DNA of 64,000 nt from Thermoanaerobaculia bacterium (GCA_036264085.1 DATARR010000012.1:34260-98259); one strand, 5' to 3'. Shown: positions 29,305-37,893, counted from the first letter of the stretch. Notes: generated by a model from the sequence alone, not told the origin. Translations and numbers: made by a program.

Positions 29305-30375
29305 TCAGCGGAAAGAGCTGGCCGTCGGAGTGACCTGTCCCGGCACCGCGTGAGCTCCCGCCGGGGCCGGAGATCCGTTCCGGCTCAACAGGAACCAGCC
29401 GGTGGCCAGCACGAAGACCATCAGCAGGAGGGTGACCGCGAGCAGCAGGAGGGCTTGGCGGTGGTCCCGCTCGCCGGCGTCTCCGGCGTTGGAGCGGGTC
29501 CGGGCCGGCGCCGCGGCGACGGGCCGGGGAGCGCCGGGGAGGACCTCCAGCCGTCCTTCCGTGGGGAGCGGCTGGATCGTCCGGGGCCGGACCCCGGAGC
29601 TGTTGTCCGTGCGGGCCGCCTCGCGCAGGGCCTCCGCCATCTCCGCGGCGCTGGCGTAGCGGGCGGCGGGCTCCTGGCTGGTGGCGCGGGCCAGGACCCG
29701 GAAGAGCGGATCCCGCACCCCCAGGCCGCCCTGGCTCCGCAGCGAGCCGGCGAAGGTCAGGCGCCGCAGCAGCGAGCCCACGGCATAGAGGTCGCTCTGC
29801 ACCGTGTAGAGCTCCCCCGCGAGCTGTTCGGGGGGCAGGGTGAGCAGCGGATCGAAGACGAGCTGCGTCAAGCCGAAGCCGGTGAGCACCAGGTGCCCCT
29901 CCGGCGCGAGGATGACCTCGTCCTCGGCGATGTGGCGGTGCAGGATTCCCTCGGCATGGCCCTCGGCGAGGATCTCCAGGAGCTGGCTCCCCCAGTCGAT
30001 CAGCGTCGCCCGGTCCGGCCGCTCACCCTGAGCGAGCAGCTCGTGCAGGGAACGCCCCTCGGTCTCGGCGAAGGCCACCAGCAGCGAGCCGTCGTGCTCG
30101 GCGACCTCCAGCAGGGCGGGCAGACCGCGATGGTAGATTCGTCCCAGGGCCTCGGTCTCGGCGAGCAGGATTTCCCACGAGGCGGCCTCCTGCCAGGAGC
30201 CCGGCCGCGAGGCCGGAATCACCTTCAGGATCGACGTCCGGTCGCTGCGGGTGTCCGCCGCGAGATAGGCCGTACCGAACGGCGCCGGCCCCAGGTCCTC
30301 CAGGACCTGATAGGGACCGATCTCCCGCACTCCTCGGCTGACTGGTGTAGATAGCATCCCCATGGCTCGCTCCAT
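29305..30375 (-). CDS. Membrane-anchored Ser/Thr protein kinase-like protein (probable pseudokinase)
   Basis: ATG at 30375 (MERAMGML). Kinase fold motifs YQVLEDLGPAPFGTAY, ILKVI, ETEALGRIYH. HRD is replaced by HRH (ILHRHIAEDEV) and DFG by GFG (LTGFGLT). C-terminal TM helix ALLLLAVTLLLMVFVLATGWFLL. The track start at 30798 is a GC-driven extension. Confidence 0.75.
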   Translation of the reverse strand: MERAMGMLSTPVSRGVREIGPYQVLEDLGPAPFGTAYLAADTRSDRTSILKVIPASRPGSWQEAASWEILLAETEALGRIYHRGLPALLEVAEHDGSLLVAFAETEGRSLHELLAQGERPDRATLIDWGSQLLEILAEGHAEGILHRHIAEDEVILAPEGHLVLTGFGLTQLVFDPLLTLPPEQLAGELYTVQSDLYAVGSLLRRLTFAGSLRSQGGLGVRDPLFRVLARATSQEPAARYASAAEMAEALREAARTDNSSGVRPRTIQPLPTEGRLEVLPGAPRPVAAAPARTRSNAGDAGERDHRQALLLLAVTLLLMVFVLATGWFLLSRNGSPAPAGAHAVPGQVTPTASSFR

Positions 30376-30467
30376 GCGCTTCGGGTCGACCGCCAGACCT
30401 CTGGGGACCCGAAGCTGCAAGCTCCATGCAAGGCCGGCGGCGGGACGGCGCCTGATCGGAGACGATC

Positions 30468-31189
30468 TCAGGAGCCCTCGAGCCGATGTCTTTCGTCTAC
30501 TTCTGAAGTGCGTAGGGTGGGGTGAAGTGGGACAGTGCCGGCGCGTCCGTCGCCTGCGAGCAGATGCCGCTGCTCGCGATCCAGCTCGGCCCGCAGTACT
30601 TCCTCCGACGGCAGCACCAGCCGGTACTTGCTGGCGAAGAGCTGCTCGCTGCCGTGCAGGACGGCCTTGAGCGCGAAGAGCACGAAGCACTTGAGCAGAT
30701 AGTTGTAGAAAACGAGATCCAGATAGAAGTCCTTCGACTCGGTGCTGATGCGCTGCTGCCGGGCGACGAAGGCGAAGCCCTTGCCGAGCTCCTACCATTC
30801 CCGTGCCCTGGGGTCTTCCACCCGCAGCAGGGTTCGGTAGTGCGGCCAGCTCAATTCGTGACGCAGTGCGTCACACTTCGGGAAGGCCTGGTAGACAGCC
30901 TCATGTAGCGGAGGTTGGAGACGTCGAACCCTTTCCCATACTCCGTCGTCAGACGCTCCGCCAGTTGCGAGAGCAACCGCGCTCCATACGCGGCGCGATC
31001 TGCCCCGCCCTGTTCGAGCTCCACGATGTGCCGTCCCACCTCCCAGCAGGTCCGCACCTGCACCGCGTCGACCGCGCGCAGGGCCTGCTGCCGGGCCTCC
31101 TGAATCAGAGTGCGCAACTGCCCGAGCAACCCGTCGAAAGCGGGCGGAGCCGCCAGCGCCGAGGCCTCCCGTCTGACAGCCTTCTTCAT
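30468..31189 (-). pseudogene. Decayed YhcG/DUF1016 PD-(D/E)XK nuclease gene
   Basis: N-terminal part is intact (LIQEARQQALRAVDAVQVRTCWEVGRHIVELEQGGADRAAYGARLLSQLAERLTTEYGKGFDVSNLRYMR). It then shifts frame (YQAFPKCDALRHELSWPHYRTLLRVEDPRAREW) and lacks the middle of the family. The C-terminal pieces (ELGKGFAFVARQQRISTESKDFYLDLVFYNYLLKCFVL / EQLFASKYRLVLPSEEVLRAELDRE) are joined by an internal deletion. Confidence 0.75.
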
Positions 31190-31370: not shown

Positions 31371-31750
31371 GCGGTCGCTATGCCATCGCGGAACCTCGCC
31401 CGCGGAACCTCGCCCGAGACGATCGAGCAGGAGACCGTGTCAACTCCGGCCGCAGCCTGGGGCTTCTTGAGGCCCAACGGGCCGCCCTCCCTCAGCCCGG
31501 GGCAACGCCCTGGGTCTCAGGGAGATCGGAAATCATCGATGCGGCCTGAAGGGCCGCGCTAAGCTGCGCCGCCGAGGCGCGGTCATGGCATCGCGGAAAC
31601 CGCCCGAGACAATCGCGCAGGGGATCGTGTCGGCTCCGGCCCCGACCTGAAGGATTCCTGAGGCCCAACGGGCGCCCTCCCTCAGCCCGGGGCAACGCCT
31701 GGGTCTCAGGGAGATCGGAAATCATCGATGCGGCCTAAAGGGCCGCGCTA
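31371..31750. repeat. Tandem direct duplication of a ~180-190-bp unit at the left edge of the low-GC island
   Basis: Copy 1 is 31371..31561 and copy 2 is 31577..31750. The last ~90 bp of each is nearly identical (ggcccaacggg(c)cgccctccctcagcccggggcaacgcc(c)tgggtctcagggagatcggaaatcatcgatgcggcct(g/a)aagggccgcgcta). Confidence 0.85.
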
Positions 31751-31803
31751 CGCCTTAGGGAGCCGGCTTGATCCACCGGCTCAATCCAACATACACTTCC
31801 CAC

Positions 31804-32043
31804 ATGAAGGCCGTACAGATTATGTTTGACGAAGATCTCCTCGCCGAATTGGATGAGACCGCCGACGTTCGTGAAAAGGGGCGGTCCGCGGTGCTGCGGC
31901 AACTCACCAGCGACTTCCTGCGCCAACGTCGCGAACGTGAGATCGATGCTCAGTACGAGCGCGCCAATGCGGGGGGCGAGGAGCCGCTCGGAAAGGACTT
32001 CGAGGGGTGGGAAGAAGTGCTGATGCTCTCTCGACAAACCTGA
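31804..32043 (+). CDS. Ribbon-helix-helix (CopG-family) protein, orphan antitoxin-like
   Basis: From the ATG at 31804: MKAVQIMFDEDLLAELDETADVREKGRSAVLRQLTSDFLRQ is a typical RHH beta-alpha-alpha region, with an acidic tail (GEEPLGKDFEGWEE). No intact toxin ORF in the following 170 nt. Confidence 0.65.
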   Translation: MKAVQIMFDEDLLAELDETADVREKGRSAVLRQLTSDFLRQRREREIDAQYERANAGGEEPLGKDFEGWEEVLMLSRQT

Positions 32044-32213: not shown

Positions 32214-34211
32214 TCAAATTAGCAGATTTGTCTGCTCAACATCCCTGACAGGCAAACGGACCCTCGCTCCATGCTCAATTGGGTGGACAAGGGTATGTCG
32301 GCGAACATCATCGAGTACTCCTGGTTTCGCGATACGCTTCAGGAGCCAACGGCCAGCCCACCAATTGATAAGATTCTGGCTGGACTGGTTGGGCGCCTTT
32401 AAGCTAAACAGATACTTTGGTCTGGATTCCTGTCCTAGGAGGTACTCTTTTAAATTTGACACCAGGTTCACTCCAAACATCGCCTTTTGTTGACCATGCC
32501 TTAGGAGGGCCTCCTCGTTAAAACCAAGAGCGGCTAGCCCATCTCGCAAAGCTCTCATTTTGGGATTGGCCCCCTCACCGAATATGTAGTTTACCCTCTG
32601 CCCATTCCGTGTAGACTTTAGAAAGCCGGTGATCGCTCTCATCGTCTCTTGGCTGAACTGGTATGTCCCCCAACCCACGGTGTTGTCGATGTATCGATAT
32701 TTAATGGGCTGCCCCAATTTTCCCCCAAGAGTCTGAGCAGGAATAGAAATACTACTGTATTGGCATGGTAACTCGCCGTACAAACTCGTTGTGCCGACAA
32801 AGACGAGATCAGCTGGCCTGACTATTGGACGCCCTGCCATTGATGATGCAATTACGCTCGGCGAATCGCAATATCGCGCCCGATTTGCCAAAATCGCCTC
32901 AGGACTTACTGCGAGCATAGCCACTAATTTGCCCACCACCAATGGATTATACGGGGGAATAGCGCCGCAAACTGTCAGATCAGCGATAGCAGTGCCAACG
33001 CGAACCGCTTTTGCTAGACGGACAAGGTCAGCTATAGCCTTTTTACCATCTGGGGCCGCGACTAATCTGCGGATGGCTTCCCGGTTTGCTCCCCCTCCAA
33101 GAAAGCTTCGAACGATTTTTCTTGCCCAGAGGAGGTTGGCGAGTTCCACCGCTCTCTTGCTGCGGAAGAGTGGAGTCATAGATTGTTTCACCCAATAGTC
33201 TGTAGTCAACGGGGATCTCTCGACAGCCTTATGGTCCTCTGGGTCCGTTACTCGGTGATGCTGAGTTCTTCGCTTACTAGCCTCCTCCCGAAGAGTTGCA
33301 ATGACGGCCTCTGTGGGATTCTCTAGGACCTTTGGAGTTATGAGTTCGTCTTCAATAAAGTCGACCTTGTAGATCTCTCCGAGCCTGTTCTCTATGACAG
33401 ATTCCAGCCAAGCATTGGTCCGCGTGGGTGAAATGTTCGGAAATTCTTGCAGAACCTTCTCAGCTTCCCAGCCTATGAAATCGTCTCTGTTACGTAACTT
33501 CACAGCGGAACTGCTAAGGCACCCAATCCCCATCACGGTATGCAAGGGTGTGGCGGCATCTCGAAGAAGAAAGGTCATCGAGCGGCCGGGTACGCTCTGA
33601 TAGGGATTCGTCCAGGTAAGTCGAAAGTATCTCCATATGTCTGAGAGAGGGATTCCTGTATACTCGCAAGTCGTGTCGCTCTCAACAAACTGAAGGTATG
33701 GTTTGATTACATCTTCAGCTTGAATCCGGCCAGACTGGACGCCCATCAAGGAATCTGCCAATTCTCGACCATCCCGCATCAGAGAAAAAATAGACACACG
33801 TCTTCCCTCAAACCAATGTGGTCTTTCCATTTTGCGAACAAATGATTGAACCGCAAGAGTGCGCAGTTGCTCTGTCCGCTGAGCGACGAGTTGAAGCCTT
33901 CTCAACTCTCTCTCGCCCATTCTAGTCTTGGCCGCCGTGGTGGCTTGGGATTCGAAGTTCCATCCTTGACGCAGGAGATCGGCTACAACATTCACAATCG
34001 CAACGCGTTTCAGGATTGCCTCTCGGGCGCTTTTGTTCGTCCGGCGGACATAAGCACGGCGTAAGCGCTCGATCTCGTCGTTCCACTCTGCAGAGCCGGG
34101 TGGTGCATTTGTTTTGGTCAGAACCTCGTAAAACTCCAATACCACTTCATGAGCGAGTTGATCGCTGTCGGAGTATTCAATTCCAATTGAAGAGAGGAAA
34201 TCCTTATCCAT
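32214..34211 (-). CDS. DUF4338/DruA-like protein (last gene of island operon)
   Basis: 665 aa, about 50% GC. DIWRYFRLTWTNPYQSVPGRSMTFLLRDAATPLHTVMGIGCLSSSAVKLRNRDDFIGW, CGAIPPYNPLVVGKLVAMLAVSP and LVFVGTTSLYG...TVGWGTYQFS parallel the DUF4338 pattern I recall (GSAAW..ARD.FIGW ... ETFVD..F.GT.Y.AANW..G.T.G). GAGGTG RBS. Starts 9 nt after the upstream gene. Confidence 0.7.
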   Translation of the reverse strand: MDKDFLSSIGIEYSDSDQLAHEVVLEFYEVLTKTNAPPGSAEWNDEIERLRRAYVRRTNKSAREAILKRVAIVNVVADLLRQGWNFESQATTAAKTRMGERELRRLQLVAQRTEQLRTLAVQSFVRKMERPHWFEGRRVSIFSLMRDGRELADSLMGVQSGRIQAEDVIKPYLQFVESDTTCEYTGIPLSDIWRYFRLTWTNPYQSVPGRSMTFLLRDAATPLHTVMGIGCLSSSAVKLRNRDDFIGWEAEKVLQEFPNISPTRTNAWLESVIENRLGEIYKVDFIEDELITPKVLENPTEAVIATLREEASKRRTQHHRVTDPEDHKAVERSPLTTDYWVKQSMTPLFRSKRAVELANLLWARKIVRSFLGGGANREAIRRLVAAPDGKKAIADLVRLAKAVRVGTAIADLTVCGAIPPYNPLVVGKLVAMLAVSPEAILANRARYCDSPSVIASSMAGRPIVRPADLVFVGTTSLYGELPCQYSSISIPAQTLGGKLGQPIKYRYIDNTVGWGTYQFSQETMRAITGFLKSTRNGQRVNYIFGEGANPKMRALRDGLAALGFNEEALLRHGQQKAMFGVNLVSNLKEYLLGQESRPKYLFSLKAPNQSSQNLINWWAGRWLLKRIAKPGVLDDVRRHTLVHPIEHGARVRLPVRDVEQTNLLI

Positions 34212-34220
34212 GTAGCACCT

Positions 34221-35945
34221 CTAGGGCTTTAATAGAACGTCAAGAACTTCGCTCCACTCGCGGCGAAAGTTCGCGATCACCTTGCGCTCGGCGGCTGAGG
34301 TGGCTGCAATCTCTGCCCGAACTGCTGACAGGAGAAGGAGTTGCATTGCAAGGAGAGTTTCCTCCGGCTTGCGGGAATCACCCTCTAGTAGAGGTCTGTA
34401 AACCTGCTTATAGAATCGGTGCTTCGGGTTGACTACGAGTGTGATACGACCATCATCAAATATTGGAAAAATGAAAGATGATTCTCCGAGATCATCCTCA
34501 ACGATCCTATAATCCCGGTTTCCCGCTGTGGGTGAGGTTTCGCGTAATGAGGCATGACGTCGACGGAGCCGTTGCGCCATCTGTTGGTGCTCCTCAGGTA
34601 AGGCTCTATGGCGTATTTCCCGGAGGTGATGATCCTTCCCCGCGGCCAAAGTTTCTGCAGATCTCGCTTGTACTCTTGTTTTAAGGGCGAGGTGAGTCTG
34701 CCTCACGCGCGCGTTCAGCGCGCGAGCCATGTCTCCCATGTCGGGCGAGAGCACCTCGATTAGGGACTCTTGAGGTCTGACTTGTTGTTTGGTGTGCGTG
34801 ATGCCAAAGAGTTCGTCTAGCTCTGGCTCGAACCTGATTTCCGCACGCCACCAATCATCATAATTCTCGCGTCGTTTATCAGCTAAAAAGAACCAACCAT
34901 AATCTATTTCGCGACCACCTCGGACTATGGATACGCCTGCGCCATTAGTAATGCCTAATCTGCGCTTCTCATCATTGGGAAGAGAGTGCCAATCCTCGAT
35001 CGGCAGTTCAGAAAAAGTAACAGTAACTATTCCAGTGCTTGCCTTGGCAGAAGGCACCGGTGCTCGCACTTCATATTCTAGGGGTTCTGCGAATACTTCC
35101 CCTCCGGCGGTCACTGAAGGTTGGCGAACATACAGTGGGTCGACAGGAATAATTTGGTCGCCGTTTACATCTATCTCGACTCCATCCCAGAGAAAATAGC
35201 GAAAGACACGGCCAAGGGCCAGTTTGAGCTTCTGCTCGAGGGTAGAGATACGGCGGTTCTCTAGGCGATCACATTGGCTCCAGACGACGAGCGTTCCGGA
35301 AGAGGTCTCCGTCGTCTGAGCCCAGAGAGGCAAGCGAGTTCGCCGAGGAGAAGGTACCCTAGAAGTTTCCCCAGAGACAATTTCTTCCAGATCTAGGTAA
35401 GTGAACAGAGTCTTCCCTGGCTCCAACCATGAGTAGACTTCAACACGCCGAGCTTGACTTAGGGAGGCATTGGGTAGTCCCATGCCATAACGACCCAGGC
35501 CCGAACGGTCATCAAAGCGGCTACTCCCGCCAAAGCGAAGCGACTGCCTTAGCGTATGAGCGTCCATCCCGTGGCCATTGTCTAGAACCGCGATGACAAT
35601 AGAGTGCTCGGTCTCTTCATCGCTGCGTCGGATGAAAATGGAGATGGTCCGTGCTAGTGCTTGAAGGGAGTTGTCTACCAATTCGCTAATAGCGCTCACA
35701 GTACCTTTGTAGCCGGAATCCCGAGTCGCCTGGATGAATTTGTCCAGGGCAATGACCGAGTACTCGCCCGTTGGTTTCACCTTGTGCCCCTCGCCTTCCT
35801 CAGAAAAAGGATGCGTCGGGTGCCCTGAACCGGCGTCCATGTCTGTTGGGTCGGAGAACCGGACCACCTCTCCCCCGAACTCGGTTAGGCCCGACTGCGG
35901 CAGAAGTATACCGAATGGCGTATCCATGAGAAGCCCCCCATGCAT
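34221..35945 (-). CDS. MORC-like GHKL ATPase (HATPase_c_3 type), paralog 2
   Basis: N-box AISELVDNSLQA, G1 VLDNGHGM, G2 GRYGMGLPNAS. Downstream DELFGITHTKQQV and NPKHRFYKQVYRP are shared with the upstream paralog. Confidence 0.85.
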   Translation of the reverse strand: MHGGLLMDTPFGILLPQSGLTEFGGEVVRFSDPTDMDAGSGHPTHPFSEEGEGHKVKPTGEYSVIALDKFIQATRDSGYKGTVSAISELVDNSLQALARTISIFIRRSDEETEHSIVIAVLDNGHGMDAHTLRQSLRFGGSSRFDDRSGLGRYGMGLPNASLSQARRVEVYSWLEPGKTLFTYLDLEEIVSGETSRVPSPRRTRLPLWAQTTETSSGTLVVWSQCDRLENRRISTLEQKLKLALGRVFRYFLWDGVEIDVNGDQIIPVDPLYVRQPSVTAGGEVFAEPLEYEVRAPVPSAKASTGIVTVTFSELPIEDWHSLPNDEKRRLGITNGAGVSIVRGGREIDYGWFFLADKRRENYDDWWRAEIRFEPELDELFGITHTKQQVRPQESLIEVLSPDMGDMARALNARVRQTHLALKTRVQARSAETLAAGKDHHLREIRHRALPEEHQQMAQRLRRRHASLRETSPTAGNRDYRIVEDDLGESSFIFPIFDDGRITLVVNPKHRFYKQVYRPLLEGDSRKPEETLLAMQLLLLSAVRAEIAATSAAERKVIANFRREWSEVLDVLLKP

Positions 35946-36084
35946 GCCCGTGGCTGTCGACTAGATCTTCGAGATAAGGCAAGATTCGCGCCAATCCTCC
36001 GCCCAGTAGGGGACTCTAGGGTCGCTAAGTTGGGTCGACCAGCCTAGAGTACCCTGGCCCCTACATCCCTAGCAGCGGGGTCTT

Positions 36085-37893
36085 CTAAGACTCGTCTGTA
36101 TACAGTGCCTCCGCCACGGCGTTGGCTTTGTCTGAGAGGGCTTGGTCGCTGACGAGTGCGTCCAAGGCATGGCGAAGGCGTTCGGACCACGACTGGCGAG
36201 CTGCTTTATAGAAAACTTCCGACGCGCCTTCTGCTTCGAGTTCGCCGTCGGCTAATACCAAAAGGAGCACCTCAAGGGCGGAGCGCACTTGAGGGTGGGG
36301 TTCGTATACCTTTTGATAAAAGGGATGATTCGTGTTTAGTACTACTCGCTTCTGCTCGCCAAGGCGCAGTGGACTGAAGAAAGGGCCTTCCTTAACTGCA
36401 TCGAACAAGATCCGCCAGCGGTGCTCCTTAGCCTCACCTTCCAACTGCTTTAGAACTTCGTCAGCCTGCCGGCCTGTTGCGGCAGCAATCTGCTGTGCCT
36501 CATTCTGGAGATTCTTGCGGCCTTCCTCCCTCTTCCGGACCGATTGTTCTCTTTTCCGGAGTTTGAACTTTTCGGCTTCTTCCATCGCCTGCTCGCTGGC
36601 CTTACGACCATCAATCGCTTTTGCTTCGCTGCGGACTGCTTCATCCTTCTCGATTAGCCGGTCGCGGGCGGCGCGGAGATCTTTGACGAGTTGTATTAGC
36701 GCTCCTCCTCCCTTGCCGTTGTGTAGTAGCTTTTCCCACATTGATTCTGCGATCGTTATCTGCTGCTTCGCGGTGGTAATTCCGAAGAATTCGTCGAGCG
36801 AAGCATCGAAGTCGATCTCCACTTTAATGTTGGCGTCGTAGGTTTGGAACTTGGTCCAGCGAGGTGGAACGGAGTCGATCTGGCGACCTTCCCGGCAGAT
36901 TAGAAGAGCGTTATACTCTCGCATAATTGGCCAGCGGCTGTTTGTGTTACTGCTGTCGGTGCGAAGTGGATCGACTCGCTGGAAAGTCGGCGGTAACAGT
37001 GAAGCCCGAATTCTTACGGCACCCACTCGGCCCTCTGCTGTAGAGACGTCGAACGTACGGGCCTCGAAGCGAATGGCGCGGTCGGACGTCTCGTCGAAAA
37101 GGCGGCCATGCTCCATGAGGAAGAGTGGATCTACAACCTGTGTCGGCGCACGGTCGACGAAGATACTTCTTTCGGGCATCCAGTGTCGATAGATTACCCC
37201 TAAATGTTGGTGAAGTTTGGTGGTGATCGACTTTCTGGTAACCCAACCTGGGAGCCTCTTCAGGCGATCGAGGTCCTCCAATACGATCACTGTTCCAGAA
37301 TCGATAGAGTGAAGGTCAATCGTCTCTGTTCCTTCTAAAATCCAGCGAGGGAGGGATTTCTTCTGAGGAGTCAATAGCTTCTCGATTTTCTCGGCACTAT
37401 CCGCAGAGCCTGCAATTTTGGAGATGTCTACTGAAACTGCGTGCCAGTTGCTGCCAGCGATTTTTGAGTATACCGTATAGCGGCATGCAAGGCTGACGGC
37501 TGACGTGGGAAGACCATATCCGTACCGACCGAACCCAGACCTGTCGTCTTCCCGGTCAGTGCCGCCCCATCGAACGGCGTAGCCAATCATGTCCGGAATC
37601 ATTCCGTTTCCGTCATCGACGATAGCGATCTGGTTGGGCTTACTTTCGGTGGTATTAGCTTCTTTGAATCCATAGCATATTTCAACGGTCGTCGCCGACG
37701 CTTGCATAGCATTGTCGACCAATTCGGCGATTGCCCAGGCGGGATTCTTATAGCCAATGTCGCGCATTCCTCGAAGGAACGCGTCGGCGAATACAATCCC
37801 CGCCCCGGGGGCCCTTCTCTTCATTGTCTCGACATAGTTCTTTTGGCGCTGCGTTGTATCCATAATAGTGGTGGACTCATGTGGGTTAGGCAT
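36085..37893 (-). CDS. MORC-like GHKL ATPase (HATPase_c_3 type), paralog 1
   Basis: N-box AIAELVDNAMQA, G1 IVDDGNGM, G2 GRYGYGLPTS, then DEFFGITTAKQQI, a charged coiled-coil-like stretch (KASEQAMEEAEKFKLRKREQSVRKREEGRKNLQNEAQQ) and NTNHPFYQKVYEP. RBS GAAAGGAAAG. Confidence 0.85.
   Translation of the reverse strand: MPNPHESTTIMDTTQRQKNYVETMKRRAPGAGIVFADAFLRGMRDIGYKNPAWAIAELVDNAMQASATTVEICYGFKEANTTESKPNQIAIVDDGNGMIPDMIGYAVRWGGTDREDDRSGFGRYGYGLPTSAVSLACRYTVYSKIAGSNWHAVSVDISKIAGSADSAEKIEKLLTPQKKSLPRWILEGTETIDLHSIDSGTVIVLEDLDRLKRLPGWVTRKSITTKLHQHLGVIYRHWMPERSIFVDRAPTQVVDPLFLMEHGRLFDETSDRAIRFEARTFDVSTAEGRVGAVRIRASLLPPTFQRVDPLRTDSSNTNSRWPIMREYNALLICREGRQIDSVPPRWTKFQTYDANIKVEIDFDASLDEFFGITTAKQQITIAESMWEKLLHNGKGGGALIQLVKDLRAARDRLIEKDEAVRSEAKAIDGRKASEQAMEEAEKFKLRKREQSVRKREEGRKNLQNEAQQIAAATGRQADEVLKQLEGEAKEHRWRILFDAVKEGPFFSPLRLGEQKRVVLNTNHPFYQKVYEPHPQVRSALEVLLLVLADGELEAEGASEVFYKAARQSWSERLRHALDALVSDQALSDKANAVAEALYTDES

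Follow-up and report, generated by a model that had tools for sequence, protein, structure and literature searches.

A probable helicase-free relative of Druantia type I with two MORC-type ATPases and its own sigma factor

Gene content of the locus

We analysed a 64,000-nucleotide window from a Thermoanaerobaculia bacterium (GCA_036264085.1, DATARR010000012.1:34260-98259; positions are counted from the first letter of this stretch), in which two adjacent paralogous GHKL ATPases had been predicted from sequence to form a self-contained module. The window has a G+C content of ~70%, which drops to 52-54% between 32 and 39 kb, delimiting a 7-kb low-GC island. Four intact, consecutive open reading frames (ORFs) lie on the minus strand of this island and encode a sigma-70-family protein, the two ATPases (hereafter GHKL-A and GHKL-B, or A and B) and a long form of DruA. 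Both ATPase ORFs were recovered at the coordinates given in the original prediction and lie on the minus strand, with every quoted motif present in their translations. Rather than being self-contained, however, the pair is one half of a four-gene module completed by the sigma gene and DruA, and this module is probably, judging from its sequences, a helicase-free defence system related to Druantia type I. The genes and elements that make up the module are as follows.

38624..38652, minus strand: promoter-like element TTATCA-17 nt-TATAAT upstream of the sigma gene, read from the sequence
38500..38622, minus strand: structured 5' leader (~115 nucleotides) of the sigma/GHKL-A operon, a candidate new cis-regulatory RNA
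37909..38499, minus strand: sigma-70-family protein of 196 residues with regions 2 and 4; GTG start, GGAGA Shine-Dalgarno sequence
36085..37893, minus strand: GHKL-A, 602 residues; MORC-type ATPase (GHKL plus S5-like) carrying a long charged hairpin of helices, with a C-terminal domain specific to the family
35946..36084, minus strand: A-B intergenic spacer of 139 nucleotides, longer if GHKL-B starts at Met36
34221..35945, minus strand: GHKL-B, 574 residues as called; paralogous MORC-type ATPase, possibly 539 residues from the ATG at 35840
32214..34211, minus strand: long-form DruA (DUF4338), 665 residues, matched by PADLOC DruA1 and Pfam PF14236

Across GHKL-A homologs on long contigs and in named genomes (loci of the comparison sets carry L numbers below), the same four genes were found in Polyangiaceae, Archangiaceae, Bryobacteraceae and other Acidobacteriota, Methylomirabilia, Gemmatimonadota, Planctomycetaceae, and Beta- and Gammaproteobacteria. 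The phyla with four-gene synteny include Myxococcota, Acidobacteriota, Methylomirabilota, Gemmatimonadota, and Planctomycetota. The genes are arranged as two sub-operons, one with sigma and GHKL-A and one with GHKL-B and DruA, which are collinear in the window, divergent in L001, and convergent in L005, L008, L011, and L017, while L015 has the order B-DruA-sigma-A. Terminator-like hairpins lie between A and B in other collinear loci, which indicates that the two ATPases belong to two transcription units. The four-gene cassette is spread horizontally; GHKL-A was detected in one of 401 sampled genomes of the host phylum, i.e., the island is rare there. No recurrent fifth gene was found in A-type loci. 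Downstream of DruA in one Bryobacteraceae locus (L003:15559-18479), two overlapping genes encode a 470-residue protein with a TIR_2 domain and a 503-residue protein, an arrangement that does not recur in A-type loci.

The two GHKL ATPases are intact and anciently diverged

A and B are paralogs: BLASTP aligns them over 514 columns at 30% identity (E-value 3e-45), from the N-terminal strap through the NTNHPFYQKVYEP / NPKHRFYKQVYRP block, and the relationship noticed in the original prediction is confirmed far beyond chance. Each protein carries a complete Bergerat fold (Pfam HATPase_c_3, PF13589, E-values of 1e-17 for A and 2e-21 for B, above the cut-off), including the four nucleotide-binding motifs of the GHKL superfamily (N-box, G1, G2, and ATP-lid glycines). 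When 13 orthologs of A and 13 of B, taken from distinct loci, are aligned, the blocks E..DN (N-box), D.G.GM (G1), and GR.G.GLP (G2) are kept at 90% or more in both lineages, as are the further blocks LDE.F.IT..KQ, N..H.FY, and WS...L. Similarly, 38 columns are invariant in a 70-sequence alignment of A and B (alignment A1), among them E57, D60, N61, D93, G95, G97, G122, G125, and G127, together with K376, Q377, N520, H523, and F525 (A numbering). We found no copy without an intact ATP site, as a decaying duplicate would have; both are intact and conserved. Nor are the C-termini unrelated, since the family-specific C-terminal blocks are shared and conserved in both lineages.

The C-terminal part of these proteins is distinctive. 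Residues 388-602 of A match only 256 clusters among 1.84 billion representatives, and full-length matches (~580-700 residues) all hold this region at the same C-terminal position, which marks it as family-specific. GHKL-A has 745 homologs, of which the best 120 are all full length, 54-61% identical, and named at most 'ATP-binding protein'. In a tree of 66 GHKL sequences, A and B form one clade each with 100% support, and the same sub-groupings of loci recur in both clades, which argues that A and B are co-inherited. The duplication is old, with orthologs 39-58% identical and A-B paralogs always ~27-30% identical. The long charged insert had been described as restricted to GHKL-A, and this stands only in part: the A linker is roughly 20-30 residues longer, but B has a helical linker there too. 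As had been noted, neither ATPase has a recognisable effector domain (nuclease, TIR, or transmembrane). The start of GHKL-B is uncertain, and because its orthologs begin 10-30 residues before a conserved FI..RD.GY block, Met36 (ATG at 35840) may be the true start.

The description of both proteins as MORC-like also holds, with the ATPase modules of MORC2, MORC3, and MORC4 as the best PDB matches by sequence and MORC2 (9cdh) as the best by fold. By sequence, these three are the nearest solved structures, followed by MutL and SMCHD1, over the Bergerat core only; a GHKL family profile compared with MORC gives an E-value of 6e-11, with homology restricted to profile positions 51-145. An AlphaFold model of GHKL-A (pLDDT 86, pTM 0.71) begins with a GHKL domain, followed by an alpha+beta transducer (243-380) and a long charged hairpin of helices (399-490), and ends in a small beta unit and a C-terminal domain made of helices. 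With this model, Foldseek retrieves MORC2 with DNA (9cdh, E-value 9e-14, ~440 aligned columns), then MORC4, MORC3, SMCHD1, and Hsp90, the MORC2, MORC4, and MORC3 modules aligning over 420-490 columns with E-values of 9e-14 to 7e-12. The combination of GHKL domain and S5-fold transducer that characterises MORC ATPases is accordingly present by fold in the AlphaFold model; the Pfam MORC S5 model gave no match in either ATPase. The published MORC S5 motif GhXhhpXXRhl (PMC2292703) fits at 10 of 11 positions in a by-eye match to the pattern rather than to a MORC alignment: the corresponding stretches are G329-L-L-I-C-R334-E-G-R337-Q-I339 in A and GVSIVRGGREI in B, with Q or E instead of a hydrophobic residue after the arginine. 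R334 and R337 are invariant, and G329 and I339 at least 90% conserved, in the 70-sequence alignment. The shared IT..KQ block contains a lysine, K376 (K386 in B), that is invariant in both lineages and sits in a loop where the transducer domain ends. It may well be the basic residue contributed by the S5 domain to the ATP site, in which case this downstream block would be part of the ATPase engine.

GHKL-B and long DruA form a core that exchanges partner arms

The fourth gene of the module is a full-length DruA. It matches PADLOC DruA1 (PDLC00001) over positions 28-668 of 675 with an E-value of 2.9e-163, and Pfam PF14236 with an E-value of 1.1e-26 (94 bits; cut-off 27). Its homologs number more than 1,700, some named DruA by NCBI, and the structure is predicted with a pLDDT of 87.7 and a pTM of 0.88. 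DUF4338 has been annotated as GNAT-like by Aravind and colleagues (PMC10853773). A motif-A-like stretch, CGAIPPYNPLVVGKLVA, can be picked out by eye only; C415, G416, P420, Y421, and K428 are invariant.

The context of DruA was scored by tblastn in 80 metagenome loci sampled through DruA, not through the ATPase. These statistics refer to contig flanks of at most 10 kb, so that 'B without A' describes an 8-10 kb flank, not a whole genome, and the well-flanked set comprises 22 DruA-centred loci with 6 kb or more to either side. Of the 89 loci with upstream sequence, 87 have GHKL-B immediately before long DruA; the GHKL-B stop codon is 9 nucleotides before the DruA start in the window, and the genes overlap or lie within 3 nucleotides in L001, L003, and L005. 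Most well-flanked loci (14/22) continue with a protein of ~970 residues (X969), DruD, and DruE, 13 of them without any second GHKL gene and one with a distant A-like GHKL. The remainder have GHKL-A (3/22), a more distant second GHKL (3/22), or neither (2/22). In the Druantia-type locus L020, the partners match DruD1 (E-value 1.8e-115) and DruE1 (1709 bits). A third partner arm, in which an X969-related protein (31% identity and an E-value of 2e-28 over the first 290 residues) stands with a SNF2-type helicase in the absence of DruD and DruE, was found at the following positions.

L040:2235-7948, minus strand: X-like protein of ~950-1000 residues, then SNF2-family helicase of ~1015 residues
L046:11558-17595, plus strand: the same arm in the same order

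GHKL-B and long DruA are thus a near-invariant, stable core that exchanges arms, namely the DruE helicase, the SNF2 helicase, or the sigma factor with a second MORC-type ATPase. In a DruA tree the partner labels are interleaved, with at least seven partner changes forced by well-supported branches, and the window DruA is sister to that of Druantia-type L020. A canonical-style Druantia I operon on a Nitrosococcus plasmid has a short DruA (410 residues) and no GHKL, and in alignment the short form covers only residues 169-251 and 409-634 of long DruA. The presence of the ATPase partner therefore correlates with two segments found only in long DruA, its additional N-terminal region and its helical insertion.

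This distribution bears directly on the obligate heterodimeric clamp that had been proposed for A and B, i.e., a MORC-like functional unit of the two proteins with unspecified output. GHKL ATPases work as ATP-driven dimers, the best fold matches are MORC2, MORC3, and MORC4 structures, both paralogs are intact, and A occurs with B in all A-centred loci with enough flank, the two trees sharing sub-clades. However, B stands without A in most long-DruA loci, including genuine Druantia I operons, and must therefore work without it, the 13 well-flanked loci in which B has no second GHKL at all being incompatible with an obligate pair. In addition, A and B belong to different transcription units whose relative orientation varies, and B is tightly coupled to DruA, not to A. 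We therefore consider an obligate heterodimer unlikely. A facultative A:B complex is possible in A-type loci, since in all GHKL-A-centred loci with enough flank A is accompanied by both GHKL-B and DruA, and since A and B share sub-clades.

Two further observations concern the surroundings of this core. A further class of second GHKL proteins (650-705 residues, ~25-32% identical to A or B) occurs beside GHKL-B/DruA in L026, L034, L035, L041, L050 (6838-9595), L051, L075, and L088; three of these loci, L050, L051, and L088, have a weak sigma-like ORF (~200-230 residues) after it, the reverse of the sigma-then-GHKL-A order in the window. Separately, many GHKL-B/DruA operons that stand alone, whether of the GHKL-A or the Druantia type, open with a small MerR/excisionase-like helix-turn-helix gene (…RQTLWRWR..GKIP.GRRYR…) in the 150-250 nucleotides upstream of GHKL-B (e.g., L037, L045, L033, L050, L052, and L084); the window does not have it.

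A sigma-70-family gene with a conserved promoter-like element and a structured leader

The 196-residue ORF upstream of GHKL-A is assigned to the sigma-70 family from its profile matches: it scores 66.2 bits with NCBIfam TIGR02937 (cut-off 42.9), matches the FliA/WhiG and SigB/F/G subfamilies, and has Pfam Sigma70_r2 above the cut-off (E-value 7.6e-8) and Sigma70_r4 just below it (E-value 2.6e-4). An orthologous ORF lies directly upstream of GHKL-A in nearly all A-type loci. Its region 4.2 helix, SQPRV(A/S)QLH, is nearly invariant in a protein of 29-36% identity, and nucleotide conservation upstream of every sigma ORF is far above that of the sigma protein. This conserved upstream sequence includes the element TTATC(A/G)A-N~17-TATA(T/C)(A/T) (38652-38624 in the window), which is retained together with the leader across at least six phyla. 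A strict pattern, TTATC[AG]A-N14-17-NATA.., has 20 matches in 2.8 Mb of loci. Eleven coincide exactly with the sigma leader; of the nine scattered elsewhere, seven are clearly intragenic and two fall in unannotated flank. We infer that the window copy, TTATCA-17-TATAAT, acts as a promoter. With a nearly invariant region 4.2 helix and the sigma gene's own promoter as the only conserved one, the sigma factor would appear to activate its own expression.

The leader is specific to this arm of the module. In nhmmer searches it occurs once per A-type locus, just upstream of sigma, in 24 distinct loci and in the window (E-values down to 1e-47, and 2.7e-30 for the window), and never before GHKL-B or in DruD/E-type loci. 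Its fold consists of a long-range helix P1, a hairpin P2 with an A-rich loop, and P3. These helices have 95% of cells paired, compared to 40-62% when slid along the alignment, their covariation exceeds that of all 500 shuffles, and four pairs show double changes. No Rfam 15 family matched 38500-38622 at an E-value of 1 or below. A covariance model (R1) has a single match in the 7.1-Mb genome (38530-38622, 70 bits), and also detects a weak copy upstream of sigma in the divergent locus L021. In L027 the leader stands directly before GHKL-A, with no sigma ORF. Altogether, the alignment and search results mark the leader as confined to the sigma/GHKL-A arm and as a candidate for a new cis-regulatory RNA.

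The tight association of sigma and GHKL-A raises the possibility that the sigma factor is itself the output: GHKL-A would hold it inactive and release it on a signal from GHKL-B/DruA, redirecting RNA polymerase towards transcriptional takeover or shut-off. SpoIIAB and RsbW are single-domain GHKL-fold anti-sigma factor kinases of ~150 residues, and the window resembles them, by analogy only, in that a GHKL-fold protein is encoded beside an alternative sigma factor and transcribed together with it. This sigma factor scores with the SigB/F/G and FliA/WhiG subfamilies, whose members are controlled by anti-sigma factors. The sigma-to-GHKL-A order is nearly invariant, the second GHKL class described above adjoins a weak sigma-like ORF in three of eight loci (L050, L051, and L088), and elaborate leader control of sigma translation would suit a potentially toxic product. 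Unlike SpoIIAB and RsbW, however, GHKL-A is a 602-residue MORC-type protein with a transducer domain, and no anti-anti-sigma (STAS) partner is present. Furthermore, L027 has leader and GHKL-A without sigma, no sigma ORF accompanies the A-like paralogs in L085, L104, and L105, and the one in L022 has only a 24-bit sigma-like ORF upstream; no target promoter was found other than sigma's own. The loci without a sigma ORF suggest that the ATPase is more fundamental than the sigma factor, and we regard this anti-sigma model as distinctly unlikely compared with a defence system in which sigma serves as regulator.

Island boundaries and genomic context

Beyond the module itself, the island contains one small ORF at its edge and is delimited by repeats.

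31768..32043, plus strand: small CopG-type RHH ORF (Pfam RHH_1, E-value 1.2e-4), convergent with DruA, at the island edge
31371..31753, unstranded: left island boundary, ~190-bp tandem duplication including an Acido-Lenti-1-like copy, from the repeat search
38737..38948, unstranded: right island boundary, inverted repeat whose 64-nucleotide arms are Acido-Lenti-1-like copies, from the repeat search

The RHH ORF does not recur beside other A-type loci, and its membership in the module is doubtful. At the left boundary the G+C fraction drops from ~0.67 to 0.52. One Acido-Lenti-1 (RF01687) match, at 38751-38795 on the minus strand, exceeds the gathering score of 37 with 38 bits, while those at 38890-38934 on the plus strand (28.5 bits) and 31470-31514 on the minus strand (32 bits) fall below it. 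The copies at both island edges behave like an interspersed repeat marking insertion hot-spots. Apart from the left tandem duplication and the right inverted repeat, the repeat search found no direct repeats bracketing the island, and no integrase, replication, or transfer genes lie within it.

Directly outside the right edge, a 21-bp tandem array (38976-39541) with two alternating sub-types, a 42-bp super-unit, and a GGACRTGTCC-like palindromic core yields spurious ORFs on both strands (38819-39767). To the left, at host-like G+C content, are an N-terminal fragment of a DUF1016 (YhcG-type) nuclease gene (30851-31189, minus strand) and a Ser/Thr protein kinase gene (29305-30798, minus strand).

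Elsewhere, the neighbours of the module include AbiJ, AbiEii, SIR2 with a DUF87 ATPase, PIN, PemK, RHH, integrases, and transposases, which are typical defence-island, toxin-antitoxin, or mobile-element genes. Beside Druantia-type L020, a SIR2_2 and DUF87/FtsK-like ATPase pair and an AbiEii gene (L020:641-4301) likewise represent a defence-island context. A phage origin was considered and set aside, as relatives were found on only six contigs of viral collections, with the same architectures as host-type loci.

Interpretation

The reading we favour is that the locus is an anti-phage or anti-mobile-element system, probably a helicase-free relative of Druantia type I organised as a mobile module of four genes and two transcription units. 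GHKL-B would be a dimeric, ATP-gated MORC-type clamp that joins DruA, the GNAT-like enzyme of Aravind and colleagues, in a stoichiometric complex, and the two would together form a conserved DNA-engaging core for sensing or marking, with the N-terminal region and helical insertion of long DruA as likely docking surfaces. GHKL-A would fill the place held by DNA helicases in the sister systems, as a second DNA-dependent ATPase turning recognition into output, whether through clamping, compaction, or silencing of invader DNA or through growth arrest, and may hetero-associate with B through their common GHKL dimer interface. The sigma factor, whose promoter and -35-reading helix are both conserved across phyla, would most likely be a dedicated, auto-activating regulator of its own operon, with the structured leader gating its translation so that a burst of GHKL-A is produced only on a trigger. 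Any particular output (compaction, silencing, or growth arrest) is much less probable than this overall reading.

Several observations weigh against this interpretation. Only DruA, one of four proteins, links the cassette to a validated defence system, and the defining DruE is missing. The whole DruA model has no significant match in a Foldseek search of the PDB (best E-value 0.6, MYST acetyltransferases at ~4), leaving DruA a putative enzyme. Both arms are present in L029 and L045, and an A-like paralog occurs with DruD-DruE in L105, so that GHKL-A is not a strict replacement for the helicase arm. With respect to regulation, no conserved sigma-type promoter was found upstream of GHKL-B/DruA, the TTATCRA-TATA pattern being confined to the sigma leader. 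Finally, an alternative helix between the C-rich 3' strand of P1 and the GGAGG Shine-Dalgarno sequence of sigma is unsupported in alignment A3, where 60% pairing does not exceed that of shuffled or slid controls; this alignment is poor in its 3' part.

Two other explanations start from the same context data. The locus could be a decaying remnant, in which the GHKL-B/DruA head of a Druantia I operon was orphaned from X969-DruD-DruE and an unrelated sigma/GHKL pair happens to adjoin it. The sister position of the window DruA to that of L020 and the lack of DruD in the genome are consistent with such a history, but the four ORFs are all intact and keep their conserved motifs, A was never observed apart from B/DruA in loci with enough flank, the two ATPases co-diverge, and the recurrence of the same intact architecture with its specific leader in at least 24 distinct loci from at least six phyla makes a remnant very unlikely. 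Least probable is a role outside defence, as a selfish or regulatory mobile-element module, or as an accessory that organises chromatin (a MORC-like factor for compaction, with a sigma factor of its own) and confers some other advantage, which would agree with a repeat-bounded low-GC island, a sporadic distribution, and the lack of a nuclease or obvious toxic effector, but not with an island devoid of integrase, replication, and transfer genes, a core pair embedded in validated Druantia I-type operons, and neighbours typical of defence islands elsewhere.

Within the helicase-free defence reading, a more specific scenario can be sketched, although we consider it doubtful in this full form: an immune or silencing system without helicase or nuclease, in which a constitutive GHKL-B clamp with DruA marks or reads DNA, and a riboswitch-like leader sets off self-amplifying sigma expression and a burst of GHKL-A that compacts or silences invader DNA. 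Bacterial MORC ATPases are the presumed ancestors of eukaryotic MORC silencers, and such a system, if real, would parallel in bacteria the MORC-mediated silencing of transposons in eukaryotes. It would also identify a MORC-type ATPase as an overlooked core subunit of Druantia type I systems with long DruA, and the chemistry of DruA (possibly DNA or protein acylation) would explain the modification signal of a system that has no methylase. 

Our literature search found DruA together with GHKL in no paper and DUF4338 in only four, and the MORC-type ATPase with which long DruA is almost always paired went unmentioned in the literature searched. The natural minimal, helicase-free version isolates DruA/MORC function for study, carries an unrecorded, phylum-spanning structured leader RNA, and, with only four genes, offers a compact system in which to approach the biochemistry of DruA and bacterial MORC ATPases. 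It also illustrates that automatic annotation labels such loci 'Druantia DruA' despite the absence of the defining helicase.

Comparison with known systems

Prokaryotic MORC and paraMORC ATPases have been predicted to be parts of restriction-modification-like systems with helicases, nucleases, and methylases (Iyer, Abhiman & Aravind 2008, PMC2292703). The ATPases described here resemble them in having all four GHKL motifs and an S5-like transducer, with a by-eye near-match to the MORC S5 motif, and resemble paraMORC1 in having a family-specific extension beyond S5 (PMC2292703). Two different GHKL genes in one neighbourhood also have precedent in those systems (MORC with paraMORC1), as do the sporadic, laterally mobile distribution and the pairing, in sister architectures, of the ATPase with SF2 helicases. 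Unlike in those systems, no methyltransferase or nuclease partner is present, and the partners are DruA (DUF4338) and a sigma factor, which PMC2292703 does not describe, neither 'sigma' nor 'acetyltransferase' appearing anywhere in its text. Among eukaryotic proteins, MORC2, MORC3, and MORC4 (PDB 9cdh, 5of9, 5ix1, and 7k7t) are the best matches in sequence and fold, and a charged coiled-coil projects from the MORC2 ATPase module too; however, identity to these proteins is 12-15%, the CW zinc finger and chromatin-reader domains are absent, and the C-terminal domain differs.

The Mza defence system, to which MzaB belongs, was reportedly described by Gao and colleagues in 2020. MzaB (NCBIfam NF041932, PADLOC PDLC02204) is the best defence-library match for both ATPases, through its N-terminal GHKL domain. 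The match is limited to the N-terminal 190-216 of 480-500 profile positions, no MzaA, MzaC, MzaD, or MzaE genes are present, and scores with NF041932 of 54.9 and 77.8 bits against an equivalog cut-off of 850 exclude membership in Mza. Likewise, Tiamat and the other GHKL defence proteins listed by PADLOC were rejected, a PADLOC scan at an E-value of 0.01 or below giving only the partial MzaB match for both ATPases.

Druantia type I is said, following Doron and colleagues in 2018, to consist of DruA-DruB-DruC-DruD-DruE. It is an experimentally validated defence system, among the broadest-acting against phages, in which the roles of DruA to DruD have remained unknown since 2018; recent mechanistic work concerns only the DruH-DruE type III, and one preprint reports an altered m6A (N6-methyladenine) signal for type I, a system without a methylase domain. 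DruE, the signature gene of all Druantia types, was not found in the 64-kb window, and the only MZB match of the genome, on contig C121, has no tblastn similarity to DruE1 (from L006), which is why the locus is not filed as Druantia. Searching with the L020 DruD1 ortholog returned nothing in the 99%-complete genome, and no island protein matched DruB, DruC, or DruD in PADLOC. The window thus differs from Druantia type I in lacking DruE, DruD, and a protein in the X969/DruB-C position, and from published type I systems in having two MORC-type ATPases, a sigma factor, and a structured leader; canonical short-DruA systems, unlike the long DruA of the window, come without GHKL. What it shares with Druantia type I is a full-length DruA (PADLOC DruA1), a GHKL-B and long-DruA pair that elsewhere heads operons with DruD1 and DruE1, and a defence-island context. 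From its gene content, the system is best described as a new version of a known theme, a putatively sigma-controlled, helicase-free relative with two MORC-type ATPases, built on the DruA core of Druantia type I.

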